A stretch of DNA of 64,000 bases, from NCBI GenBank assembly GCA_964554455.1, contig CAZKOW010000001.1:132951-196950 (forward strand), written 5' to 3'. Source of the stretch: an uncultured Sphingopyxis sp. GTDB lineage: Bacteria > Pseudomonadota > Alphaproteobacteria > Sphingomonadales > Sphingomonadaceae. Of the stretch, positions 4,170 to 19,875 are shown piece by piece. Numbering within the stretch: the first letter of the stretch is position 1; each line of letters opens with the position of its first letter. The notes under the pieces were generated by a model, which was not told where the DNA came from, ran no database searches, and worked only from the letters and a program-made list of their open reading frames with translations. The position numbers and the translations under genes are program-made.

Positions 4170-5948
4170 ATGACCGAAACCCAATATGGTGGCCATGCCG
4201 CCGCCGCGCTGGTGCTGGCGGCAGCGGTCTTTTATGCCTTTGCCACCGAACGGGCGCGCAGCGAGATCATCTCGCTGCTGACCATCAGCGCGATTGCGCT
4301 GGGCCTTTATCTCTTTCCCCTGCCAGGCGCGAATGCCAAGGATGGGCTAGCCATCGCCTTTCAGGGCTTTGGCCATCCTGCGCTCATCACCATTTGCGCG
4401 CTGATGGTCATGGGGCGCGGGATCGCGGTCAGCGGCGCGCTGGAACCCGTGGCGCGGCTGCTGCGCCGGGTGTGGCTGGTCAATCATCATCTGGGCCTGC
4501 TGGTCACCATCATGCTGGCCTTTGGCATGAGCATGTTTGTCAATGACACGCCGGTGCTGGTCCTGCTGCTGCCCGTGCTGTTGCAACTGGGCGCACAAGG
4601 CGCAATGCCTCCATCCAAGACGCTGATCCCCGTCAACGCCGCAGTGCTGATCGGCGGGATGGCGACGACCATCGGCACCTCCACCAACTTGCTGGTCGTG
4701 TCGATTGCGCAGGATCTGGGCATGCGCCCGCTCGGCATATTTGAATTTGCGCCGTTGGTGATGACGGCGGCGCTGATCGCGCTGCCCTATGTCTGGCTGG
4801 TGATGCCGCGCCTGCTCGGCGACAATAGTGTGGAGGCGGTGGCGGGGGGCAATTATTTCGCCGCCGTGCTGCGGCTGCGCGCTGGCTCGCCCGCATTGGG
4901 TCAGACGCTGGCCGAGCTTGCGGCCAAATTGCCCGCCACGCTGTCGCTCCGGCCCCATGGTCAGGCGCTCGCCGCCGATGACCGGCTGCTGGCCCATGGC
5001 AGCTCGGCTGACCTGCGGGAAGCGGCGCGGTTGCTCGGCGCATCGCTCGCCCCGCACTGGCTCACTGACCGGATCGAGGCAGAGGCGCGCGCTGCGGAAC
5101 AGGACATATTGCTCGCCGAACTGGCGGTGACCGCCGATTCGCGGCTGATTGGCCTGACGCTGCGGACGGCGGGCTTTGGCGATGTCGCGGTGGTCGGCGT
5201 CAATCCGGGGCGCGCCGCAGTGGCCGGCCATGATCCGTCGCAGGCGGTCTTTGCCGAAGGCGACATGCTGTTGATGCTGGGCACCGAAGCCGCGATCCAG
5301 CGCCGCGCCGCCGATGACGGGCTGTTGCTGCTGGCCGGGGTGGAAGAATTGCCGCGCCGGTCAAAGGCCGCGCTGTCGCTGGCCATCATGGGCATAGCGG
5401 TCGGATCGGCGACGTTGGGGCTGGTTCCCATCGCCATTTCGGCGCTGGCCGGGGCGATTGCCATGTTTGCCACGGGCTGCGTCAAATTCGACCGGGTGGG
5501 CCGGGCCTTGTCGGCGCAGGTCATCGTGCTCATCGCGGCCAGCATCGCACTGGGCGACCTGATCCTGATCAGCGGCGCGGCGGGCGGGTTGGCCAGCGGC
5601 CTGGCGCTTGGCCTGCAATTCCTGCCGCCCTTTGCAGTGGTGGCGGCGATCATGCTGTTCGTGACGGTGCTCACCAATTTCGCATCCAACGCAACGGCGG
5701 CGGCGGTGGGCACGCCCATCGCCTTTGTGCTGGCCCAGCAATTGGGGGTGCCGCCCGAACCGCTTGTGCTGGCCGTGCTGTTCGGGTGCAACCTATGCTA
5801 TGCCACGCCGATAGCCTACCAGACCAACATGCTGATCATGAAAGAGGGCGGCTATGGCTTTGCCGATTATGTGCGCACCGGCCTGCCGCTGGTTGGCATC
5901 ATGATCGTGACATTGTCGACGCTGCTCAGCTGGCATTACGGGCTTTAA
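4170..5948 (+). CDS. SLC13/DASS-type anion permease with central TrkA-C domains
   Basis: 592 aa. Two hydrophobic halves flank a soluble ~200-aa region ('LRLRAGSPALGQTLAEL...', 'LAELAVTADSRLIGLTL') resembling a TrkA_C pair. Confidence 0.75.
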   Translation: MTETQYGGHAAAALVLAAAVFYAFATERARSEIISLLTISAIALGLYLFPLPGANAKDGLAIAFQGFGHPALITICALMVMGRGIAVSGALEPVARLLRRVWLVNHHLGLLVTIMLAFGMSMFVNDTPVLVLLLPVLLQLGAQGAMPPSKTLIPVNAAVLIGGMATTIGTSTNLLVVSIAQDLGMRPLGIFEFAPLVMTAALIALPYVWLVMPRLLGDNSVEAVAGGNYFAAVLRLRAGSPALGQTLAELAAKLPATLSLRPHGQALAADDRLLAHGSSADLREAARLLGASLAPHWLTDRIEAEARAAEQDILLAELAVTADSRLIGLTLRTAGFGDVAVVGVNPGRAAVAGHDPSQAVFAEGDMLLMLGTEAAIQRRAADDGLLLLAGVEELPRRSKAALSLAIMGIAVGSATLGLVPIAISALAGAIAMFATGCVKFDRVGRALSAQVIVLIAASIALGDLILISGAAGGLASGLALGLQFLPPFAVVAAIMLFVTVLTNFASNATAAAVGTPIAFVLAQQLGVPPEPLVLAVLFGCNLCYATPIAYQTNMLIMKEGGYGFADYVRTGLPLVGIMIVTLSTLLSWHYGL

Positions 5949-6196
5949 CGATCGCCGGTGTTGCCGCGATCGCCGGTGTTGCCGCGATCCCCGGTATTGC
6001 CGCGATCGCCGGTATTGCCGCGCGCATCGTCGTCTGCTGCTTCGCCAGCGTCCTCGGCGTCGCCAGCGGCGTCGTCGGCCTCAGGCGCTTCGTCGGCGAC
6101 ATCAATAACTTCGGTGTCAGCCTCTTTGCTCTCTCCGCACGCCGCGAGCGGCAGCATCAACAGCGCGAGCGCGGCGGTGGTCAGTGATTTTGACAT
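5945..6196 (-). CDS. small acidic lipoprotein with C-terminal (GNTGDR)n repeats
   Basis: 83 aa. Lipobox 'LPLAAC', a D/E/A-rich middle and four to five GNTGDR hexapeptides at the C-terminus. Its stop codon shares the TTAA at 5945-5948 with the convergent permease stop. Confidence 0.65.
   Translation of the reverse strand: MSKSLTTAALALLMLPLAACGESKEADTEVIDVADEAPEADDAAGDAEDAGEAADDDARGNTGDRGNTGDRGNTGDRGNTGDR
5949..6020. repeat. 18-bp tandem repeat x4 (cgatcgccggtgttgccg)
   Basis: Four head-to-tail copies at 5949, 5967, 5985 and 6003 with 1-2 substitutions. They encode the GNTGDR repeats on the minus strand. Confidence 0.95.
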
Positions 6197-6223
6197 GGTC
6201 TTCTCCCCTTGCGAATGAACAGA

Positions 6224-8239
6224 CTATAGGAAACCGAGCCGCTGTTGAAGCGCGGTAAAGCGCGGGGCCGAGCGCACCGGATCGAGCAGCGGGTCGTTGC
6301 GAAGCTGCACCAGCCCCGAATCGCCCGCCGCCAGCGCGGCTTCCAGCGCGGTCAGCGCGGCGTCGCCCTCACCCCATTGCGCGCGAACCTGGGCCTGCTG
6401 ATAGAGGCTGTTATCGCCGTATTTCGCGATCATCTGCTGCAACCCAGCCTGAGCCGCTTCGGCCTGCCCCAGCCGGGCATCGGCGATGGCCAGGCCGCGC
6501 AGCTGGGTCAGCCGGTTGGGCTCGCGGGCATAGCGGGCCCGCGCGCCCGCTGCGTCCCCGCCGAGCAGCGCGATATCGCCCAAAATGGCGTGCACCCCGC
6601 TGACCTTTGGATTGAGCGACAGCGCCGCACCCAGCGGCGCCGCAGCCGCGTGATAGTCGCGCGCGACATATTCGATGACGCCTGCGTTGCGAAACACGCT
6701 GGGGTTCAGGGGGTCGAGCCGCTGCGCCCGGGCGATAGCGGCGCGGGCATCGGCAAAGCGGCCCGTGCGCGCGGCAAAATTGGCAAAGGCGGCCAATATG
6801 TCGGCATTGCCAAAGCCCAGCGTGAAGCTCTGCTGATAGGGGGCAGCCGCCGCGCGCGCGTCCAGCCGCCCGTTGAACAGCGCAAAGCCCAACGCGCCAT
6901 GCCCTTCCGCCAGCGTCGGGGCCAGGCGGACGGCTTGCTGCGCCGCATCGACCGCGCGGGCATAAAGCGATTTGAGCTGATCGCCCTTGGCATAATTGTT
7001 GGCGATGACGGTCAGCGCGCGGGCGCGTTCGGCATGGGCGGCGGCATAAGCGGGATCGCGGGCAATCGCTTCGTCAAAAGCGGCCAGCGCGGCGCGGTCC
7101 GACGCTTCGTCGGCGGCCAGCCGATAGAGGGCGCGGCCACGGGCATAGGCGTCAAAGGCGCGCGGATCGCGCGTGCCGCCGACGCGCGGTGCGTTGCGAT
7201 CGCCGCTGCCCGCCAGCTTGGCCGCCAGCGCATCGGCGACCAGCGTCGCAATCTCGCTCTGCACTGCCAGCGCGTCGGCGGCGGTGCGGTCAAAGCTTTG
7301 CGCCCATTTTTCCACCCCGCTCGTCCCGTCGATCAGGCGCGCGGCGATGCGCAGCTGGTCGGCATCGCGCCGCACACTGCCATCGAGCAGAAATGCCACG
7401 TCCAGCTTGGCGGCGATGGCGCGCGGGTCTAGTTCAGCAAACTGTTTTTCGCTCGACGAGGTTTGCGCGGCGACGGCGAGCTGCGCGCTGGAGCTCAGGG
7501 TCGTGCGCACCTCTTCGGCCAGCCCTTCGGAAAAATAATCCTGCGCCGCGTCGCCGCTCAAATTGGCAAAGGGGAGGACCGCGATGCTGTTCGCAGCGGT
7601 GGCATCGGCGAACAGCCCGGCGCGCCAGGCCAGCAGGCCGCCGCCCGCTGCCAGCACCGCCGCACCGCCGCCGAGGATCAGGCCGCGCCGCGACGGGCGC
7701 GGGGCAGGCGGAGGTGAACGGCGTGATGGCAAGGATGCGGCGGTCATAGGCCGCTGTCCACCCACGGCAGCGATGGCGCGCAGCAGCTGTTGAAATGACG
7801 GCGCGGCTGCCTTGCCCTTCCATGCCGTCAGGTCGACATATTGAAACTGGCGAAAGCCGAGCGGCGGCTCGGTGCCGTCCAGAAGCACGGGCACCATCAC
7901 CCCCCGGTCACGACCGCGCGTGGCTTCATCGCGCACCCAATGCGATTGCACCGACCGCTGCGTCCACAGCACGACCACGGCGTCGGCGGTTTCCAGCGCG
8001 GCTTCGGTGGTTTGGAGAAAGGCGGTGCCACCCTCCAACAGACCGTCCCACCACACGCGCAGGCCCGCCGCCGTCAGTGCGTCGATAATGGGCAGGGCGC
8101 GGGCGCGGTCGTCGCGCGAATAGCTGACGAACACCAGCGGTGGCCCTGCGTCCCCGGCTATGTCCGCGCCCGTGCCCATGCTGCGCCGTCTGCCCCTGAT
8201 GAAATCGTGCGGGACATGACATGCTTTGCCCCGGCGCAC
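6224..8239 (-). CDS. TIR domain - single TM - TolB_N-like - TPR repeat protein
   Basis: 671 aa. TIR_2-like 'LVFVSYSRDDRARALPIIDAL...VVVLWTQRSVQSHWVRDE'. Arg/Pro-rich stretch, then the TM helix 'LILGGGAAVLAAGGGLLAW'. 'IAVLPFANLSGDAAQDYFSEGLAEE' module followed by about 400 aa of TPR-like repeats. Alternative start M21 at 8179. Confidence 0.8.
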   Translation of the reverse strand: MRRGKACHVPHDFIRGRRRSMGTGADIAGDAGPPLVFVSYSRDDRARALPIIDALTAAGLRVWWDGLLEGGTAFLQTTEAALETADAVVVLWTQRSVQSHWVRDEATRGRDRGVMVPVLLDGTEPPLGFRQFQYVDLTAWKGKAAAPSFQQLLRAIAAVGGQRPMTAASLPSRRSPPPAPRPSRRGLILGGGAAVLAAGGGLLAWRAGLFADATAANSIAVLPFANLSGDAAQDYFSEGLAEEVRTTLSSSAQLAVAAQTSSSEKQFAELDPRAIAAKLDVAFLLDGSVRRDADQLRIAARLIDGTSGVEKWAQSFDRTAADALAVQSEIATLVADALAAKLAGSGDRNAPRVGGTRDPRAFDAYARGRALYRLAADEASDRAALAAFDEAIARDPAYAAAHAERARALTVIANNYAKGDQLKSLYARAVDAAQQAVRLAPTLAEGHGALGFALFNGRLDARAAAAPYQQSFTLGFGNADILAAFANFAARTGRFADARAAIARAQRLDPLNPSVFRNAGVIEYVARDYHAAAAPLGAALSLNPKVSGVHAILGDIALLGGDAAGARARYAREPNRLTQLRGLAIADARLGQAEAAQAGLQQMIAKYGDNSLYQQAQVRAQWGEGDAALTALEAALAAGDSGLVQLRNDPLLDPVRSAPRFTALQQRLGFL

Positions 8240-8252
8240 AATCGCGCCGGCG

Positions 8253-8882
8253 TCAGCGCCCCTCGCCGCGCCGCGCCTCGCGCGACAGCGCGGCCAGCCG
8301 CCGCTGGTTCGCCGCCGGGCCGCTGAGCGCCGCCGTCAGGGTGATGGTGGTCCGGCGGCTGCGGAAATAATCCACCGCCGACCGCTGGACATAATGGTTG
8401 AGCGCGGGGGCATAGTCCCACTCCAGCCGTTCGATCAGGCGCATGGTGGTGCCCGAATAGCGGTCGCATTTCACCGGGATGGTGTCGAATGTGCCCAGCT
8501 TGATCGTCACCTTGCGCGGCTTCATCGTTTTGCAGGTCCACAGGGTCGCAGTCCGCCGCCAGCCCGCCGTTGGCTTGGCGCGCGTTTCAGCCACCACGCG
8601 AAAACGGACCGATCGGGGCTTGTCCAGCGGCCACAGCTGCGCCGGGGTCCCGCGCACGGTGCGCCGCCCGACCCCGCGTCCCGCGCGCCAGTTCAGCACG
8701 GGCACCACAAAATTGCGGTTGCGGGTATAGGTCGGCCCGGTGAGCCCGGACCAGGTGATGATATCGCCCTTTACCCGCACCACCCGCTCCACCCGCCCGT
8801 CCGAAAAGACAAAGGCGTCGCTGGCGCGGTAGCGGGGCAGGGTCGCCGTTCCCAGCGACAGGGCCAGGCTGGCCGCGATCAT
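8253..8882 (-). CDS. hypothetical secreted, strongly basic protein
   Basis: 209 aa. N-terminal hydrophobic leader 'MIAASLALSLGTATLP' and very Arg/Lys-rich; no motif recognised. Its start overlaps the S8 stop (ATGA at 8879-8882). Confidence 0.55.
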   Translation of the reverse strand: MIAASLALSLGTATLPRYRASDAFVFSDGRVERVVRVKGDIITWSGLTGPTYTRNRNFVVPVLNWRAGRGVGRRTVRGTPAQLWPLDKPRSVRFRVVAETRAKPTAGWRRTATLWTCKTMKPRKVTIKLGTFDTIPVKCDRYSGTTMRLIERLEWDYAPALNHYVQRSAVDYFRSRRTTITLTAALSGPAANQRRLAALSREARRGEGR

Positions 8883-10600
8883 GGCGCCTCCTCCACCAGC
8901 CCCTGGCCAAAGGTCGCATCGCGTCCCGGCGCGCCGAGGTCGGTGGCCGACGCCTCCAGCGCCGCAACGGCGGCCTTGGCCGCCGCGACATTGGGCCGGG
9001 TGAGCGTGGCGGCGAGCCGCGCGGCAATCACGGGCGCGGCAAAACTGGTGCCGGTCGTTGATGTGCGCAGCCCGTTTGGATCCATGGAGGGGACATTGAC
9101 GCCGCGCGCGGCAAAATCGACATAGCTGCCCCGGTTGGCATAGCGATAGATTTGCCGCCGCTGGTCAACGGCGGTCACCGCAATGACACCGGTATAGGCC
9201 CCCGGGAACACGGGCGGGGCCGCTGGTCCGTCATTGCCCGCAGCGGCGACGATGACATGGCCCTTGCTGGTCAGCCGGTCGATGCTGGCCGCGACCACGG
9301 CGTTGCGCGGCCCGGCCAGGCTGACGTTGATCACCGGCACGCCTTGCGCCGCCATCCAGTCGAGCGCCTGCACCAGCGCAAAGGTCGATCCCGCCGTGCC
9401 GCGCGGTCCGGCGAAGATATCGGCCACATGGATGCGGGTGCGCGCGCCGGGCTTGGCGGCGGTGCCCGCAAACAAATGGCCGATGGCGGTGCCGTGCAAC
9501 TGGGGCACGGGGGCAGCGGCGTTAAAGGCGCGCTGCTCGACCTGGACATGGCGAAATGCGGGCAAGCTGCTGGCAACGCCGGTGTCGATCAGCCCGATGC
9601 GGCAACCACAGGCGGCGCGCGCGACCGGCGGCGCCTTTCCCTGGGTGCGCACGCGCGCCGACGAGCTGTCGAACAGATGGTTGAGGCTGAGCGCCCCCGG
9701 GTCGGCCACATCGTCGATCTGGCCCAGCAAATCCTGGTCATTGGCCGATGCCGGTCCGCGCAGCAGATAAAGCGTGCCGGTAAGCGCACCAAGCCGCGAC
9801 GAGCGCACCACCTCTATCCCCCGGCGGCGCAGTTCCGCCAGTTCGGTCGGTTGCAGGTCGATGGCGACAAATTCGTGCGCGCGGTAGCGAAAGCCTTCGC
9901 GGTCGGTGTCGATGCCGTCGCGTTCATCCAGCCGCAGCCGTTCGCTTTCGCTTTCGCTGCCGCCGCCGATGATTTCCAGCACCGCGTCATCATCGTCGCC
10001 CGCGTCGCCGCCGCTGTTGCCCGGCGCATTTTCGGTTGGGCCGTCGTCGTCGCCCCCGCCGCCGGTGTCGCCATCGTCATCGTCATCGTCCTCGCCGCCG
10101 GTGCCGGTGCTGCCCGCGGCCGCAGGAGCGTCGTCATCGTCACCATCGTCGTCGTCATCGTCGCCGCTGCCGCCCGAAGCCCCTGCGGCGGGCGCGCCGT
10201 CGTCATCGTCGCTTTCGCCATCATCGTCGTCGCCGCCCGCGCTGCCGCCGCCTGCCGCCGCGCCATCATCGCTGTCGCCGCCGCCGTCATCGGTGCCGCC
10301 ATCGTCGCCGCCCGCGCCGTCATCGCCGCCCGCGCCGCCGCCATCATCGCCGCCGGGTCCATCGTCATCGGCATCACCGCCGCCGGGATCGCCGTCGTCA
10401 TCGCCGGGGGGGTCGGTGTCGGGATCGTCGGGATCGGGCACCCCGGCGTCATCATCGCCATCGCCGTCGTCGTCATCCTCGTCATCATCATCGTCGCCGG
10501 GATTGCTTTGGGCCATGCTGGGCACATCGATGACATAGGCCGTCAGGGTTCCCGCCAGCGCCAGCGCCGCCGCCGTCAGCAAAAGATTATGCTTGGTCAC
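8879..10600 (-). CDS. secreted S8 (subtilisin-family) serine peptidase with ~170-aa hyperacidic Asp/Gly region
   Basis: 573 aa. Signal peptide 'LLLTAAALALAGTLTA'. Catalytic triad contexts are 'IGLIDTGV' (Asp), 'HGTAIGH' (His) and 'GTSFAAPVIAA' (Ser). Residues ~35-205 are almost only D/G/A/E/P/S/T. Confidence 0.88.
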   Translation of the reverse strand: MTKHNLLLTAAALALAGTLTAYVIDVPSMAQSNPGDDDDDEDDDDGDGDDDAGVPDPDDPDTDPPGDDDGDPGGGDADDDGPGGDDGGGAGGDDGAGGDDGGTDDGGGDSDDGAAAGGGSAGGDDDDGESDDDDGAPAAGASGGSGDDDDDDGDDDDAPAAAGSTGTGGEDDDDDDGDTGGGGDDDGPTENAPGNSGGDAGDDDDAVLEIIGGGSESESERLRLDERDGIDTDREGFRYRAHEFVAIDLQPTELAELRRRGIEVVRSSRLGALTGTLYLLRGPASANDQDLLGQIDDVADPGALSLNHLFDSSSARVRTQGKAPPVARAACGCRIGLIDTGVASSLPAFRHVQVEQRAFNAAAPVPQLHGTAIGHLFAGTAAKPGARTRIHVADIFAGPRGTAGSTFALVQALDWMAAQGVPVINVSLAGPRNAVVAASIDRLTSKGHVIVAAAGNDGPAAPPVFPGAYTGVIAVTAVDQRRQIYRYANRGSYVDFAARGVNVPSMDPNGLRTSTTGTSFAAPVIAARLAATLTRPNVAAAKAAVAALEASATDLGAPGRDATFGQGLVEEAP

Positions 10601-10665
10601 CTGACGCTCCCGCCTTTAAGGCCCTTTGGCGAGTCACCGCTCGGTCTGCGGCGACTCATGGCACA

Positions 10666-11253
10666 TTGTTCCGACCGGCAAAACGATTCAACCATGCGGA
10701 ATATTTCGCGCCGATGAATCGTTCGCAGCAACAGACAGGGCAAATGGAACCAAACGCGCGGATACAGGAGGAGATTGCCTCGCTCATCCCCCGCTTGCGA
10801 AAATTCGCCCGCGTCCTGACCGGCAATCTGGCCGACGCCGACGATGTGGTGCAGGCGAGCCTGGAGAAAGCGATGCGCAATATCGACCAATGGCAACCCG
10901 GAACCCGGCTGGACAGCTGGCTGTTCACCATTGCCCGCAATTTGTGGATCGACGACCGGCGGCTGGCCCGCAATCGCACGCCGCATGATGATGTGACCGA
11001 AATGTTCGATCTGGCGGGCGATGACGGGGTGGATGCGGTGGAGGCGCGCGACCGGCAGCGGGCGGTGCGCCGCGCCGTTGACGCGCTGCCCGCCGACCAG
11101 CGCGAACTGGTCGGCCTCGTCATGCTGGAGGGCTTTGCCTATCGCGAGGCCGCCGCCATGCTCGACATTCCCATCGGCACGGTGATGAGCCGCTTGTCGC
11201 GGGCCAAGGCCGCCCTGGCCGACACGCTGCGCCAGTGGGAGGCAGCGGTATGA
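10666..11253 (+). CDS. ECF (sigma-70 family group 4) sigma factor
   Basis: Region 2 'DADDVVQASLEKAMRNIDQW...SWLFTIARNLWIDDRR' and region 4 'REAAAMLDIPIGTVMSRLSRAK'. The likely true start is ATG at 10714 or 10744. Confidence 0.9.
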   Translation: MFRPAKRFNHAEYFAPMNRSQQQTGQMEPNARIQEEIASLIPRLRKFARVLTGNLADADDVVQASLEKAMRNIDQWQPGTRLDSWLFTIARNLWIDDRRLARNRTPHDDVTEMFDLAGDDGVDAVEARDRQRAVRRAVDALPADQRELVGLVMLEGFAYREAAAMLDIPIGTVMSRLSRAKAALADTLRQWEAAV

Positions 11254-12023
11254 CCGATTTCGATACCGCCATGCTGCAGGCCTATCTGCGCGGCACGCTG
11301 CCTGCGGATCAGATGGATGCCATCGATGCCGCGCTGGAAACCGACATGGCGCTCGTCGCGCGGCTGGAGGCGCTGGCCGACGGCGATGATGCGGCGAGCG
11401 CGGCGGTGCGCGATGCCTTTGCCCCGGTAGAGGCGCTGCCGGTGCCCGCACGATTGACAGCGGCGGTTTATGCAACGGCACCGGCGGCGAACCAGCCCAT
11501 CGACCTGGGCACCGCCCGCGCCGCCCGCCGGGCCGTGCGCGGGGGCGCGCAATGGGGCTGGCCGCAATTTGGCGCCATGGCGGCGTCGCTGGCAGTGGGT
11601 GTGCTGGCCAGCCGCCTGTTCCTGACCCCCGCGGGCGATGGCAGCGCGCTGGTAATCGCCGCCGCCGATGGCCCGCGCCTGACGGCCAGCCTGGCCACCG
11701 TGCTGGATACCGCCGCTAGCGGCGAGACGCGCCAGGCCGGTTCGCTGGGCACGGCACATCTGATGATCAGCTTTCGAAATGGAGACGGGCAGCTGTGCCG
11801 CCAATTTGCGGTAACGGGCCGGCGCGGCGTTACCGACGCCGTGTCGTGCCGCGATGGCAAGGGATGGCGGGTGGAGGCGATGGCGCCGCGTCCCGCTGCA
11901 CCCGGCGAAATCCGCACGGCAGCGGGCGATGCTGCCCCGGCGGTGCTGACGGCGGTCGATGGGATCATCGTTGGCGACGTCCTGCTGGGTGAAGCCGAGG
12001 CGGCGGCGCTGAAGGCACGCTGA
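11250..12023 (+). CDS. anti-sigma factor (single-pass membrane)
   Basis: ATGA overlap with the sigma stop. N-terminal helical anti-sigma region 'MLQAYLRGTLPADQMDAIDAAL', a TM helix 'FGAMAASLAVGVLASRLFL' and a periplasmic C-terminal domain. Confidence 0.75.
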   Translation: MTDFDTAMLQAYLRGTLPADQMDAIDAALETDMALVARLEALADGDDAASAAVRDAFAPVEALPVPARLTAAVYATAPAANQPIDLGTARAARRAVRGGAQWGWPQFGAMAASLAVGVLASRLFLTPAGDGSALVIAAADGPRLTASLATVLDTAASGETRQAGSLGTAHLMISFRNGDGQLCRQFAVTGRRGVTDAVSCRDGKGWRVEAMAPRPAAPGEIRTAAGDAAPAVLTAVDGIIVGDVLLGEAEAAALKAR

Positions 12024-12047
12024 ATCTGGACTGACAGGCGAACGGCA

Positions 12048-12083
12048 AAGGGGGCTGCGACCGATAGGTGCAGCCCCCTTTCC
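12048..12083. terminator. bidirectional stem-loop between convergent anti-sigma and porin genes
   Basis: AAGGGGGCTGC-(11 nt)-GCAGCCCCCTT gives a perfect 11-bp stem followed by TCC/TTT. Confidence 0.7.
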
Positions 12084-12110
12084 TGGTTTCGGCCCCAGCG
12101 GGCCGCATCG

Positions 12111-13166
12111 TCAGATCGCGAACTGCAGCTCCAGAATCGCCACCACCCCGTTGACCGTGGGCTGGCCCAGGCGGCGTTCGCGATATTGCACCAGGTCGCT
12201 GCGCAGTTGCAGGTTCCGGCTCAGCGCATAATAGCCGCCGACGCCAAAGCTGCGCGATGATTGGGTGCGCGCCTGGGTCGTGGCGGCGCTGAACGCCGCG
12301 CCCCATTTGTCCTCGACCCAGCTGATTCCGCCGTTGATTTCCCACTGGTTGAAATTGCGGTCCAGCCGGTTGCTGTCGCCGCGCCGGACATAGGCACCGC
12401 CCAGCCGCAGCGGCCCGCGCCGCAATTCGGTCCCGACGCTCCAGCTGTTCAAATCGGCGCGCCGGGTAATCGGGTCGGCATCGCCGGTGGCATAGCCCCC
12501 CGACAGGCCGACAATCCAGTCGCCCACCGGCTGCTGGAACTGCACACCCAGCTCGATGGCATCGCGCACGATCGTCCGCGCGCGCGGGTTGGCGGCATTT
12601 TCATTCTGCTGAAACTTCGGCGACCAGCTGATTCCGGCGCGGATGCCGTTGATGGGTGGCGACAGATAGATAAGCTTGAAGGCATCGCGCGTGTCGAGCG
12701 CCGACAAAAGCGCCTGCGCTGCGCCATAGCGCGACGCATCGCCGCGCACCTGGCCCAGCGCGATGACCGGCGCATGAAAGGCCAGCACGTCGGCGGGGCC
12801 GTCCTGTCGCCCCACTTCAAACCGCCCCAGCTCGCTGGCCACAAAGCCATAGATTTCGCCGGTCTCCAGCGATTCCGTTTCGCGGCGCTGGTTCGACAGT
12901 TCGACATTGGCCCCGATCAGCAGGCCATCGGGCGAGGTCCATTCGGCGTTCAGCCGCCCGAACAGGTCGATGGTCGCGTCGCTGTTGCCGGTGGCGGGAT
13001 CATTATCGTCGAACAGCGCGCCCTGCACCGCCACCCCGGCGGTCAGGCGCAGGTCAAAGCCGCCCGATTGCAGGCGCAGTTCGGGTATGGTCTGCGCCGC
13101 CGCCGGTGCCGCCGCAAGGGTGATGGCGAGCGTGGCCGCACCGGCCAAAAACAGATGCTTGGTCAT
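12111..13166 (-). CDS. outer-membrane porin (beta-barrel)
   Basis: Signal peptide 'MTKHLFLAGAATLAITLAAAPAAAQ' from ATG at 13166, with alternating beta-strand pattern, aromatic girdles and a terminal '...ILELQFAI'. Confidence 0.75.
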   Translation of the reverse strand: MTKHLFLAGAATLAITLAAAPAAAQTIPELRLQSGGFDLRLTAGVAVQGALFDDNDPATGNSDATIDLFGRLNAEWTSPDGLLIGANVELSNQRRETESLETGEIYGFVASELGRFEVGRQDGPADVLAFHAPVIALGQVRGDASRYGAAQALLSALDTRDAFKLIYLSPPINGIRAGISWSPKFQQNENAANPRARTIVRDAIELGVQFQQPVGDWIVGLSGGYATGDADPITRRADLNSWSVGTELRRGPLRLGGAYVRRGDSNRLDRNFNQWEINGGISWVEDKWGAAFSAATTQARTQSSRSFGVGGYYALSRNLQLRSDLVQYRERRLGQPTVNGVVAILELQFAI

Positions 13167-13176
13167 AAATCCCCCT

Positions 13177-13977
13177 TCAAGCCGTCGCGGCTTGCTTGCC
13201 AGTGACGTATGCGGACAGCGCGGCGGCGGCAAGCGACATCATCGCCGTTTCGCGCGCACAAATGGCGAAATCGTGAACGCCCCCGGCCAGCAGCTCCAGC
13301 TTGACATGGGACTCCGCATCCAGCCGATCGGCGGCGCGCTGCATCGCGCGGGTCCAGCGTTTGGCCCGGCGCAGGCGGGTTTCGCCCTGGTGCATGTTGA
13401 TGAGCGGCGATTGGCGGACCGATCCGTCGATCCGCAAATCCTGTTCCCCCACCGCAACCGTCAGCCGCACCTTCAGCGCAGCGGCCAGATCGCACGGCAG
13501 CGGCGCGCCGCTGCCAATGCCAAAGGGCCAGGCCAGCGCCGCATCGGGCATCGCATACCACCCCGCCGACACGCAATAGGCCGCCGCGACCCGCTTCGGA
13601 TGGAGCAGGGCAAAGCGGTGGCAAAATTGCGCGCCGCCCGAAAAGCCGAACCAGGCCGGTGCCGATATGTCGCAGGCATAGCTGTCCGCCACTTCATCGA
13701 GCAGGGTCAGCATGGCGAGGTCAGAGCGGGTCTGTCCGCCATGGGTGCCCATTTGCTGATATTGGCCAAATCGGGTTTTTTCAAACAGCGGGGCGATGAT
13801 CGTCCAGCCCGCAAAATGCGGCGATTCGGCAAAGCGGGCGGCGAGTTCGGCGGCGTTGCGCGAAATGCCGTGGACGGCGACCAGCACGGGAGCGGCGGGC
13901 CCGCGATAGACGATATAGGCGTCGGGACAATCGGCGCGGCGCGCCAGCACCATGCGGGGCAGGTCATGCGTCTTCAT
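13177..13977 (-). CDS. alpha/beta-hydrolase (esterase/depolymerase-like), cytoplasmic
   Basis: Nucleophile elbow 'GFSGGAQF' and oxyanion-type 'VAVHGISRNA'. No signal peptide. Start ATG at 13977. Confidence 0.7.
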   Translation of the reverse strand: MKTHDLPRMVLARRADCPDAYIVYRGPAAPVLVAVHGISRNAAELAARFAESPHFAGWTIIAPLFEKTRFGQYQQMGTHGGQTRSDLAMLTLLDEVADSYACDISAPAWFGFSGGAQFCHRFALLHPKRVAAAYCVSAGWYAMPDAALAWPFGIGSGAPLPCDLAAALKVRLTVAVGEQDLRIDGSVRQSPLINMHQGETRLRRAKRWTRAMQRAADRLDAESHVKLELLAGGVHDFAICARETAMMSLAAAALSAYVTGKQAATA

Positions 13978-14896
13978 CTTTGGCTCCATGAATGTCGGGG
14001 GTGGGGGTGGCCAGCTGCTGGTCCAGCCGGGCAATGGCAATCATGCCGCCCAGTTGCGCATGCAGCGCGCGGGCAAATTCGACAAAGCGCGCGCCAGCAA
14101 AACCCAGCAGCGCCAGACCGGCGACCAGTTCGCTTGCGCTGCCCTCTGCCTGGCGAAAGGCGATGACGAGCAGGATGGCGGCCAGCGTGGCGGCAACGAC
14201 CATCACCACCTCGATCGTCGCGGCCCAGCGGGTGCGGCATTCGGCGAGGCGCGCGAGCAATTGGGCGCGCTGGCCCAGTTCGCGGCGGCCATGCCGCCCG
14301 CGCGCGACCTGACCGGCCACTTCGGCCCGCACGCGGCGGATGAGGAAACGGGTCAGCCGGCCGCGCGCCTGGCGCTGTTCGCCAATCACTTGCCGCAACC
14401 GCAGCGCGCCAAGCAGGACGAGCAGCAGGCCAAGTGCCAGCGGCGCGAGCGCAGCGGCGGCGGCAGGGTGGGCGACGGCGAACCACAGCGCCGCGCCCGC
14501 CCCGGCGATGGCGCTGGTCCACAGCCGGATGACGCCGCGCGCCGCCCAATTGCGCAGCGCCGTGAGATCGCCAATGAAGGGGGTGAGCCAGCGTTCCTCG
14601 CTCGACCCGCGGCCATGGCGAATGACGCTTTCAAACAGGGCGGCGCGGGTATCGAGGATCAGCGATTGGGCCAGCCGCTCGGCAAGGCTGCGTTCGGTCA
14701 GCAAGGCCGCGCCTGTCACTGCCGCCAGCCCGGCGGCCATGCCGCCCGCCGCCAGCAATTGCGCATCGGGCACCGCCATGGCGCGGCCCAGCGCAGCAGC
14801 GGCAGCAGCGGCGAGGGCCGCCTGCGCCGCCGCCAGCGTCACCAGCAGCGCGACCATCGGGCGGCGCTGCGGTGCGGTGAGCCGGGGCAGCGTCAT
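13964..14896 (-). CDS. ABC-exporter-type transmembrane domain protein lacking a nucleotide-binding domain
   Basis: 310 aa from ATG at 14896 (ATGA overlap with the upstream gene). Long helices with intracellular-loop-like charged stretches, as in the ABC_membrane fold. No Walker or signature motifs. Confidence 0.5.
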   Translation of the reverse strand: MTLPRLTAPQRRPMVALLVTLAAAQAALAAAAAAALGRAMAVPDAQLLAAGGMAAGLAAVTGAALLTERSLAERLAQSLILDTRAALFESVIRHGRGSSEERWLTPFIGDLTALRNWAARGVIRLWTSAIAGAGAALWFAVAHPAAAAALAPLALGLLLVLLGALRLRQVIGEQRQARGRLTRFLIRRVRAEVAGQVARGRHGRRELGQRAQLLARLAECRTRWAATIEVVMVVAATLAAILLVIAFRQAEGSASELVAGLALLGFAGARFVEFARALHAQLGGMIAIARLDQQLATPTPDIHGAKDEDA

Positions 14897-15981
14897 GCCG
14901 CCTGGCTCGCAACCTGCGCGTCGCCAAAGGCCAGGCGCGCGGCGGCGACCGGATCGCGCAGGGCCGCCAGGGTGGCGATGGGCAGGCCGGTGGCGTGGCC
15001 CGCCTCGCGCGCGGCCAGCGGCGATGCCGACACCAGCCCCGATAGGGCGCAGGCCGGGCGGCCATGGTCGGCCAGCCAGCGGGCACCAAAGGCCGCGCCC
15101 ATCGCGTCCCCGGCGGCAAAGACCAGCTTGTCGAACCAGCCGGTGGCGACCGACATGTCGATCAGCGCCGCCGTTTCGCCCTGCAACAGGCCGTCGGCAA
15201 TCTCGACCACCGCAATTTCTATGTCGGCGGCGGCCAGCCGGGTGAGGAGGTAGTTGGTCGTGCTCGCAAGCTCCCGCGCCGACAGGCCGAAGGTGGAGGC
15301 ATGTCCCGCATCGGTGAAATCGATGGCAAGCGCCGCGCCCGCATCCAGCATCGCCCACAAATCGCCGCCCGACCCGGTGCCGGTCAATTTGGCCGCGCCC
15401 GTGCGAAAGCCGGCGCGCGACAGGCCGTGGACCAGCCCGGCGACGGTCGTGGTCTTCCCCGCGTTCATCGAACTGCCCGCCACGGCAATCACCAGCGGCG
15501 GGCGGGTGGCACGCTCGGCAGGCGCGGTGAATTGCGCCAGGTTCAATATGCTGCCGTCGTGGCGGGCGAGCATGCCGATGGGCTCAATCTGGGTGGCGGC
15601 GCGCATTTTGGCGTGCTTGGCGGTCACCTCCCCCGCGACGCCGCCGCCCGCGACCAGATGGCACGGGCCCAGCCGGTTGGGGACAAAGGCCTCAAACTGG
15701 TCGGGGGCATAGCGGTTGCCAAAGGCGACAATGATTTCATCACCGACATACAGGGCGCCGCGGCGGCCATGGACATTTTCAATCCGCTGATGCTGGCCCA
15801 GCGCCGTGACGCGCGCCAGCACCAGGTCACCCGCGCGCGGCGAACCGCTGCGCACCAGCCGTTCGGCGACGGCCAGATCGACATGCCGGGTGGTAAAGGC
15901 GCGCTTGGCCTCATCGAGCCGGGCGGCAAGCCGGACGGTGCGGTCGGCGGTGGGGAGTTTGGCAAGGGTGATCGATGACAT
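14893..15981 (-). CDS. P-loop NTPase-domain protein of unknown function
   Basis: 362 aa from ATG at 15981. Walker A 'VAGSSMNAGKTTTV' and Walker-B-like 'IAVVEIADG'. The N-terminal ~150 aa are beta-rich. A distant DUF1611/MobB-like impression only. Confidence 0.55.
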   Translation of the reverse strand: MSSITLAKLPTADRTVRLAARLDEAKRAFTTRHVDLAVAERLVRSGSPRAGDLVLARVTALGQHQRIENVHGRRGALYVGDEIIVAFGNRYAPDQFEAFVPNRLGPCHLVAGGGVAGEVTAKHAKMRAATQIEPIGMLARHDGSILNLAQFTAPAERATRPPLVIAVAGSSMNAGKTTTVAGLVHGLSRAGFRTGAAKLTGTGSGGDLWAMLDAGAALAIDFTDAGHASTFGLSARELASTTNYLLTRLAAADIEIAVVEIADGLLQGETAALIDMSVATGWFDKLVFAAGDAMGAAFGARWLADHGRPACALSGLVSASPLAAREAGHATGLPIATLAALRDPVAAARLAFGDAQVASQAA

Positions 15982-16106
15982 GGGGGCTCTCCTGCGGTTG
16001 GGTTGCACAGGACGAACGGAGCGGGGTGCGGCTTTATTCCGGGGGCGCGCGATTTTTTTTCGGAGCGGGATGGGGGTTGCTCGAACGGTCACCCTGAACC
16101 CGTGCG

Positions 16107-19695: not shown

Positions 19696-19875
19696 GGCCG
19701 TGCGCCCTTGCTTTCATGGGGGATCGCAAGGGCTAACGGCGCCAGGGGGGCGGTTATTCCATCGCCCCGGCAAAATCGGCACCCGCTCGGCGAACAGCGG
19801 TTTACTTTGCGGCAGGCGCAGGCATGATGGCGCGCGGCGGGCCATCCCGTCCGGCTGGGTGAAGAGGAAAGAGCG

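Follow-up and report, generated by a model that had tools for sequence, protein, structure and literature searches.

Whether tightly packed genes for envelope proteins form one signalling system or represent two neighbouring modules is the question raised by a locus of an uncultured Sphingopyxis sp. (contig CAZKOW010000001.1 of assembly GCA_964554455.1, positions 132,951 to 196,950; this whole stretch of 64,000 nt is called the window below). Here, four minus-strand genes encode a secreted S8 protease, a conserved 209-aa protein (U209), a receptor with an N-terminal TIR domain, one transmembrane (TM) helix and a TPR-containing periplasmic part, and a small lipoprotein, and they diverge from a gene pair for a sigma factor of the extracytoplasmic function (ECF) type and its putative anti-sigma factor. 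A first-pass annotation had read these six genes as a single envelope-spanning TIR operon with its own regulators. Its six open reading frames (ORFs) are all present where it had placed them, and the two ATGA overlaps that it described, of the S8 stop with the U209 start (8879-8882) and of the sigma gene with the anti-sigma gene (11250-11253), were both confirmed. Comparison with related genomes nevertheless suggests that the locus probably consists of two independent envelope modules which are adjacent in this lineage only: module A, containing the ECF pair, the S8 protease and U209, and module B, a periplasm-to-TIR receptor with its lipoprotein partner. The receptor is apparently an undescribed membrane-spanning TIR protein that is widespread in Sphingomonadales.

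The evidence for this separation comes from both sides of the boundary. On the receptor side, at least 532 relatives are encoded in a scan of one genome per species, and the loci of the 80 best-scoring of them were compared. Window proteins, together with neighbours seen in the first loci, were used as tblastn queries against 79 species-representative loci, and neighbours within 5 kb were counted in the 44 loci whose flanks reach 5 kb or more on each side. The S8 protease, U209, the ECF sigma factor and the anti-sigma factor were found near the TIR gene in none of the 79 loci, and within 5 kb of it in none of the 44. These module A genes were also not found in the nearest non-identical receptor relatives (76% and 65% identity), where the receptor gene is accompanied by a lipoprotein ORF and then two convergent trypsin genes. 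On the U209 side, approximately 50 loci (five obtained by exact look-up and 45 from metagenomes) contained no TIR gene, including about 35 in which the sequence continues downstream for 2 kb or more. The first-pass annotation had itself named missing co-conservation in related genomes as grounds for refutation, and for the six-gene unit co-conservation is absent from either direction. In the window, tight packing and a common compartment had hinted at an operon, and comparative genomics indicates that it is not a conserved unit.

Transcription signals were compared as well. A pattern search revealed no ECF-type promoter upstream of the TIR gene; however, the S8 promoter region in the window also fails the strict pattern, so that the missing motif is weak evidence. 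A scan for terminators and sigma-70 promoters over 5800-12200 gave nothing between the minus-strand genes and is uninformative in DNA of 70% GC. A GC-rich stem-loop was detected across the U209 stop (8150-8300, minus strand; 151-nt fold, -83 kcal/mol, z -2.75, no U-tract), which, situated between the modules, could terminate transcription weakly or affect mRNA stability.

Module A, although uncharacterised, is of an ordinary ECF kind. Among the approximately 50 U209 loci, the block of porin, anti-sigma factor and ECF sigma factor, divergent from S8 and U209, recurs wherever the flanks suffice, and the overlap of S8 with U209 is kept. U209 lies directly 3' of S8 in the loci with upstream sequence, the porin gene stands beside the anti-sigma gene in nearly all loci with enough flank, and the genes downstream of U209 vary between loci. 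This constant block, its variable downstream genes and its own promoter argue that module A is a self-contained ECF envelope module. The sigma factor contains regions sigma-2 and sigma-4 only (Sigma70_r2, E 6.8e-15; Sigma70_r4_2, E 7.6e-14; TIGR02937, 79.6 bits where the cut-off is 42.9). Neither the anti-sigma factor nor U209 matched any family model in Pfam or NCBIfam; the former has one hydrophobic segment, its gene overlaps the sigma gene by ATGA and has its counterpart in the same place in every module A locus, and its homologue in Sphingomonas jaspsi shows a weak zf-HC2 match (E 0.073). The promoter upstream of the sigma gene is predicted to be autoregulatory, and a similar GGAAT-N17-CGTA sequence precedes S8 in most other module A loci.

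The S8 protease (Peptidase_S8, E 3e-24) has the Asp/His/Asn/Ser set intact and in order (IDTG 338, HGT 369, AAGND 453, GTSFA 517), and its orthologues, with 57-72% identity, occur in module A loci without a TIR gene. Between its signal peptide and the catalytic domain lies a D/G-rich region (residues 34-215, positions 9956-10501 on the minus strand) with 75 D+E, 55 G and no K or R, which could be a metal-binding or self-inhibitory propeptide; the orthologue in locus L005 likewise opens with a poly-Asp stretch. U209 defines a well-conserved, unannotated group: its 172 homologous matches share 55-89% identity with it, and not one is assigned to a family. Its AlphaFold2 (AF2) model (pLDDT 91) shows an all-beta fold, to which the lipoprotein YmcC and the LolA superfamily come nearest, with YmcC (2in5) as the best Foldseek match at E 1e-5 and probability 1.0, although with a TM-score of only 0.48-0.54 and 8-10% identity; MucB is a weak match (E 0.3). 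As for the export signals that had been attributed to the three small or secreted proteins, the lipobox of the lipoprotein and the signal peptide of S8 are evident, whereas U209 has just a short, uncharged hydrophobic N-terminus, and its export would be plausible. A 208-aa gene beside S8 in S. jaspsi was considered as a U209 counterpart and rejected, as BLASTP found no similarity and the product is an unrelated low-complexity protein. U209-family copies without the upstream S8/ECF block were observed at L007:8001-8918, L097 and L098; one such copy is 305 aa long, has an N-terminal membrane extension and adjoins ArdA and KlcB genes. These neighbours suggest that it lies on a plasmid or an integrative element.

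The receptor of module B combines a TIR domain with a portable sensor. Profile searches bore out the domains that had been expected in the locus (TIR_2, Peptidase_S8, the ECF sigma regions and weak TPR matches), and in the receptor TIR_2 matched residues 36-152 with E 7.7e-23 and 81.7 bits against a cut-off of 28 (Pfam), while the TPR matches were weak in both Pfam and NCBIfam. The N-terminal region of the TolB model TIGR02800 matched residues 213-344 (E 7e-6), which covers the region of IAVLPFANLSGD, and homologues carry the JGI name 'TolB-like protein'. In the AF2 model of the 651-aa protein, the TIR domain (15-140) is followed by an Arg-rich disordered linker, the TM helix (165-186), an alpha/beta domain (198-322) and TPRs (339-648), in agreement with the earlier prediction of a cytoplasmic TIR domain, one TM helix and a periplasmic sensor with TPRs; a cytoplasmic location of the TIR domain also follows from the invariant RR ahead of the helix. 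In Foldseek, the periplasmic region was similar to the periplasmic domain of CadC (3ly8; target-normalised TM-score 0.64), which was the sole informative match of the full-length receptor, the others being mostly generic TPR matches. By sequence, the TIR domain had no match in the PDB at E <= 0.01.

The position of a catalytic glutamate is strictly maintained in this TIR domain. Glu85 (codon 7925-7927, numbered from the ATG at 8179) lies within SHWVRDEA. The first-pass annotation had recognised the same residue as Glu105, counted from a supposed ATG at 8239 and within an SxWxxE motif; the residue stands, while the codon at 8239 is GTG and the spacing is SxWxxxE, with Glu at W+4. A spacing of four from Trp to Glu is also that of the catalytic Glu in the plant SxWCLxEL motif. 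In close receptor homologues the Glu at W+4 is invariant (27/27), and among 117 representatives of clusters formed at 50% identity it is kept at position 85 in 103, which are all 103 that bear a TIR domain. Seven of the 14 representatives without Glu were examined by Pfam and all lacked a TIR domain (five with a winged helix-turn-helix (wHTH) or cyclase domain, two with no recognised N-terminal domain), and the other seven aligned poorly or not at all over the Glu stretch. Conservation of this residue had been set beforehand as a test of the TIR enzyme prediction, and in the family alignment it proved invariant. The receptor domain is a TIR fold with an enzyme-type glutamate at the catalytic position, and as such a candidate for NAD+ cleavage or signal generation.

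A word-indexed search with the receptor gave 2468 matches, of which the best 120 are full-length proteins (~645 aa, 52-66% identity). They come from Sphingomonas, Sphingobium, Novosphingobium and Altererythrobacter, and also from many metagenome-assembled genomes. The TM, TolB-like and TPR part is fused elsewhere, at 44-53% identity, to Trans_reg_C, Pkinase or Guanylate_cyc, implying that it is a portable periplasmic sensor for which TIR is one interchangeable output. Such swapped outputs, namely winged-helix, Ser/Thr kinase or class III cyclase domains on the shared sensor, were observed in P0280, P0282, P0283, P0302, P0310, P0327 and P0369; Trans_reg_C was seen in the paralogous receptors P0280 and P0282, not in the window receptor. 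In addition, the 986-aa protein P0267 has a partial trypsin domain ahead of TIR-TM-TPR, which is either a true receptor-protease fusion or a merged gene call. The receptor family shows 48-66% identity over many Sphingomonadales genera and is flanked by housekeeping genes rather than defence islands; it looks vertically inherited, and this core-like distribution argues against a typical mobile defence island.

The most constant companion of the receptor gene is a small lipoprotein. A lipobox ORF of 49-118 aa occurs on the same strand 3' of the TIR gene in 65 of the 80 related loci, starting from -22 to +101 nt relative to the receptor stop, compared with 11/80 on the opposite strand and 8/80 at a control site 3 kb upstream. 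In this family the mature part is acidic and of low complexity and ends in a DDRGNxxDR-like motif or short tandem repeats, with C-terminal repeats of at least three copies in 33 of the 65. The window lipoprotein, with its LAAC lipobox, acidic low-complexity spacer and C-terminal (GNTGDR)x4, is a typical member. Asp at position +2 is the inner-membrane retention signal in Escherichia coli. It is rare here (2/65), which by the E. coli rule argues against retention of the lipoprotein in the inner membrane.

Two further kinds of genes recur around the receptor. A trypsin-like or CHAT protease is encoded within 5 kb in 34 of the 44 loci, and a ~650-aa membrane protein (U652) in 29; neither protease, U652 nor any module A gene was found within this distance in four. 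The trypsin-like ORFs keep GDSG in 66/69 and AAHC in 69/69 cases and mostly have signal-peptide-like N-termini, and the CHAT proteins at receptor loci are lipoproteins. In a minority of loci the CHAT lipoprotein adjoins the TIR receptor (L003:4374-5897, L004:6449-7972, L013, L026 and L037); these loci present, in split form, the TPR-CHAT pairing that DdvA and similar proteins contain in one chain. The proposed encounter of exported proteins with the receptor TPRs in the periplasm is thus retained at the family level with other partners (the lipoprotein in 65/80 loci, trypsin or CHAT in 34/44), and not with the set of S8 and U209 originally proposed.

U652 carries a conserved G[VI]TGHR motif at its N-terminus and is predicted to have four TM segments, as in L003:5894-7852, and is encoded in 40 other loci too (e.g., L017, L013 and L040) on the same contigs as the TIR gene, usually divergent from it. 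Its 1620 homologues are all annotated as hypothetical, and no Pfam domain exceeds the threshold. Weak DUF4231 matches were obtained for eight of nine members, together with single weak matches to a SLOG family, nucleoside deoxyribosyltransferase and SLATT_3, and to PDB 7m5h (E 0.027). Tentatively, U652 may be a nucleotide-sensing membrane effector of the SLOG/SLATT kind. No trypsin, CHAT, U652, ThsA-like or other effector gene was detected within the 64-kb window.

In the window itself, the receptor and lipoprotein genes have the end of module A on one side and a convergent CitMHS transporter gene on the other (Table 1). Intergenic gaps of 13 and 27 nt had been reported on either side of the receptor gene; this is right if the receptor starts at the GTG at 8239, which remains a possible alternative start. 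Receptor homologues (~645 aa), including the near-identical P0001 (99% identity, 651 aa), begin at the ATG at 8179, which is preceded by AGGGG, so that the gap to the U209 gene is probably 73 nt. Most likely, the ECF sigma gene starts at ATG 10744, which is 143 nt from the S8 start, and the anti-sigma gene at ATG 11250. The lipoprotein gene converges with the CitMHS/TrkA_C transporter gene (4170-5948, plus strand), and their stops overlap by four bases (5945-5948). Beyond the promoter of the sigma gene, the ECF pattern also matched GGAATAAAGCCGCACCCCGCTCCGTT at 16015-16040 and GGAATAACCGCCCCCCTGGCGCCGTT at 19735-19760, both on the minus strand; the three matches in the window are not above chance (mean 3.5). 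The match at 16015-16040 lies at the 5' end of a gene cluster (13177-16092), and a comparable three-gene cluster, in one locus with genes annotated 7TM_transglut and ATP-grasp, stands beyond the porin in other module A loci; the cluster genes may belong to the regulon of the sigma factor of module A.

Table 1. Positions of the genes, domains and signals of the two modules in the window
Feature	Position	Strand	Basis
Lipoprotein gene, module B, 83 aa	5945-6196	-	ORF list and sequence
18-nt x 4.1 tandem repeat coding for the GNTGDR repeats	5949-6022		Tandem Repeats Finder score 127, 94% matches
Receptor gene, module B, 651 aa (TIR - TM - TolB-N-like - TPR)	6224-8179	-	Pfam, NCBIfam, homologue starts, AF2
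Periplasmic TPR superhelix, residues 339-648	6236-7165	-	Weak profile matches, AF2, Foldseek
Periplasmic alpha/beta domain, TolB N-terminal-like, opening with IAVLPFANLSGD	7214-7588	-	TIGR02800, AF2
Single TM helix RGLILGGGAAVLAAGGGLLAWR, invariant RR before the helix	7622-7687	-	Homologue alignment, AF2
TIR domain, residues 15-140	7760-8137	-	TIR_2, AF2 (pLDDT ~90)
U209 gene, module A, 209-aa conserved protein	8253-8882	-	Start overlaps S8 stop
Secreted S8 protease gene, module A	8879-10600	-	Pfam, NCBIfam, catalytic motifs
ECF-type promoter GGAATATTTCGCGCCGATGAATCGTT, GGAAT-N17-CGTT, upstream of the sigma gene	10698-10723	+	Conserved in 31 aligned intergenic regions
ECF sigma factor gene, module A, 169 aa from ATG 10744	10744-11253	+	Pfam, NCBIfam, homologue length
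Putative single-pass anti-sigma gene, module A	11250-12023	+	ATGA coupling, position kept in relatives
Porin_4 outer-membrane porin gene, synteny partner of module A	12111-13232	-	Pfam
Receptor ORF as called before start correction (longer version)	6224-8239	-	
Sigma ORF as called before start correction (longer version)	10666-11253	+	
Anti-sigma ORF as called before start correction (longer version)	11235-12023	+	

Gene content, topology, conservation of the glutamate, neighbourhood counts and the swapping of output domains are what the analysis shows; the ligand, the mode of activation, the TIR product and the physiological role are inferred. If the two modules are independent, their working might be pictured as follows. 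In module A, as in other ECF envelope-signal modules, the protease and U209 would act on or around the anti-sigma factor or its signal. In module B, the single-pass inner-membrane receptor would pass a periplasmic signal to the cytoplasmic TIR enzyme. The lipoprotein may serve as a disordered tether whose C-terminal repeat peptides are read by the receptor TPR domain, and loss, cleavage or binding of this tail, in most genomes possibly cleavage by the adjacent exported trypsin-like or CHAT proteases, would change receptor clustering. Clustering could then turn on NAD+ cleavage or signal synthesis by the TIR domain, the product of which would act on the neighbouring U652, the likely receiver in most genomes. 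As a whole, such a Toll-like pathway, in which exported serine or cysteine proteases process the lipoprotein, TPR reads its tail, and clustered TIR domains make a nucleotide that gates a SLOG/SLATT-like protein, is unlikely to hold in every step.

Several observations weigh against two independent modules or against extending the family picture to this locus. The TIR gene comes 13-73 nt after U209 in the same orientation and no terminator was detected, and thus co-transcription with S8-U209 is possible. In S. jaspsi, the genome of which was fetched separately, the receptor gene comes after an ECF/anti-sigma pair divergent from S8, in a gene order that differs from the window. The loci compared are the best-scoring 80 among at least 532, which leaves rarer arrangements under-sampled; the window has neither the usual protease nor U652, so the family-level model may not carry over unchanged; and the SLOG/SLATT assignment of U652, made from sub-threshold matches, is tentative. 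A single dedicated trans-envelope TIR system made up of the four minus-strand genes and the ECF pair, in which S8 and U209 would act on the TPR domain and the sigma factor would control expression, could draw on this tight packing without a detected terminator, on the plausibly periplasmic location of every partner, and on S. jaspsi, where S8, ECF and anti-sigma genes also stand beside a TIR receptor. It is very unlikely all the same, given that the combination occurs in none of the 79 TIR loci and none of the ~35 informative U209 loci, that no ECF promoter motif precedes the TIR gene, and that S. jaspsi, which keeps the lipoprotein and two trypsins, lacks U209. A subgroup around S. jaspsi that conserves ECF and S8 beside the receptor was ruled out by its member P0103, which has neither nearby. 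A weaker link between the modules would be protease displacement, with the trypsin or CHAT partner lost here and its role taken over by the S8 of module A, making the adjacency functional though recent. That S8 is an orthologue (57-72% identity) of the protease kept with U209 and the ECF pair in many receptor-free genomes speaks against this, as do the four of 44 receptor loci with neither protease nor U652 nearby, the two trypsins still present in S. jaspsi, and the possibility of a trypsin gene outside the window. With at least two unrelated exported protease families accompanying the receptor in 34/44 loci, no trypsin or CHAT gene in the 64-kb window, and S8 upstream in the same orientation and adjacent in S. 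jaspsi as well, displacement is less remote than the single system and still improbable.

Other alternatives concern the role of module B. It might be a Thoeris-like abortive infection system against phages, the TIR protein acting as a ThsB that senses envelope attack and U652 as a SLATT pore effector, as in type VII. The catalytic-position Glu, the often divergent and adjacent U652 with its weak DUF4231/SLATT-like and SLOG-like matches, and the validation of TIR and SLATT pairs for defence with a cyclic ADP-ribose (cADPR) signal (bioRxiv 10.64898/2025.12.03.692087) are in line with this possibility. As the first-pass annotation had expected, PADLOC recognised no system in the locus: the six proteins gave only TIR or S8 domain-level matches or none, and neither the receptor nor U652 matched a system model. 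The receptor reached 25 bits for ThcB4 against a cut-off of 220, and SAVED_TIR covered residues 36-106 only; module B thus falls under no curated model of Thoeris or PADLOC. Since the window also lacks U652, and the family looks vertically inherited over many genera among housekeeping flanks instead of defence islands, a Thoeris-like role is doubtful, and between phage defence and envelope surveillance the core-like distribution argues against a mobile island role. Many TIR domains serve as adaptors, and the TIR domain might also be a non-enzymatic scaffold within a structural or housekeeping envelope factor of Sphingomonadales, as the broad, core-like distribution and the lack of any solved TIR structure close in sequence would allow. 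The invariant Glu position and surrounding SHWVRDEA motif, and the cyclase, kinase or wHTH outputs that homologous receptors hold in place of TIR, make this quite improbable. Two independent modules, with module B as a receptor for periplasmic signals, therefore remain the probable interpretation.

With a TIR domain in the place of a cyclase, kinase or DNA-binding domain, TIR chemistry would be one of the ordinary outputs of transmembrane signalling, and through the receptor family envelope events would be linked to NAD+-derived messengers. For the ligand and the activation step, concrete candidates that are open to testing are the lipoprotein, as the constant partner, and the exported proteases that recur at receptor loci. 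If the Toll-like pathway is true, it would mean that envelope-to-cytoplasm TIR signalling is conserved across Sphingomonadales.

In the literature searched, nothing relevant was found on a membrane-anchored TIR-TM-TPR/TolB-like receptor or on an ECF and S8 context of this kind. Parts of both modules resemble known systems. Module A shares with RpoE-RseA-RseB-DegS an ECF sigma factor, a putative co-transcribed single-pass anti-sigma factor, a periplasmic serine protease and a candidate periplasmic LolA-like beta protein, whereas its protease belongs to the S8 subtilases and carries a long acidic region, in place of an S1/PDZ DegS, and U209 is not demonstrably an RseB homologue. For module B, Toll and Toll-like receptors with the Spaetzle protease cascade offer a functional analogy only. 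The extracytoplasmic solenoid sensor, one TM helix and cytoplasmic TIR domain are alike, and the trypsin-like proteases and small exported protein at module B loci may by analogy correspond to the cascade and its possible substrate or ligand; in contrast, the TIR domain is N-terminal (reversed polarity), the solenoid is TPR instead of leucine-rich repeats, the enzyme-type Glu is kept, and homology is confined to the TIR domain. Envelope surveillance by RcsF-IgaA is likewise a functional analogy only: there, too, a small lipoprotein with a disordered linker partners a signalling protein of the inner membrane at its periplasmic domain, although the module B proteins are related to it neither in sequence nor in fold.

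Closer parallels are found in systems that link periplasmic sensing or TIR activity to cytoplasmic responses. In Myxococcus xanthus, the ECF sigma factor and transmembrane anti-sigma factor of DdvA/DdvS, with TPR-CHAT as the periplasmic part of the anti-sigma factor, control immune genes, which shows that a periplasmic TPR and a caspase-like protease can feed cytoplasmic defence signalling (PMC11506125). At some receptor loci, similarly, the TPR ectodomain is accompanied by a CHAT lipoprotein encoded separately; here, however, TPR is on the TIR receptor and not on an anti-sigma factor, and the ECF pair of the window belongs to the S8 module. Type VII Thoeris consists of the TIR protein ThsB and the SLATT effector ThsH, which communicate by cADPR, and the TIR proteins of the Thoeris systems compared here act in two-gene operons for which a periplasmic sensor is not described (bioRxiv 10.64898/2025.12.03.692087). 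Module B has in common with it a TIR domain with the catalytic-position Glu and, in most related genomes, a membrane neighbour with weak SLATT/SLOG-like similarity, and differs in that its TIR domain is membrane-anchored with a large periplasmic sensor, that a lipoprotein and exported proteases are added, that its distribution is core-like, and that the effector-like gene is absent from the window. With the ToxR/CadC receptors it shares the N-terminal cytoplasmic output, the one TM helix and the periplasmic alpha/beta and helical sensor, and close homologues of this sensor bear a Trans_reg_C output as CadC does; the output of the window receptor is TIR rather than DNA-binding, its TPR array is long, and no link to pH or lysine sensing is known for it. 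Module B is therefore a CadC-like receptor architecture combined with a Thoeris-like TIR output.

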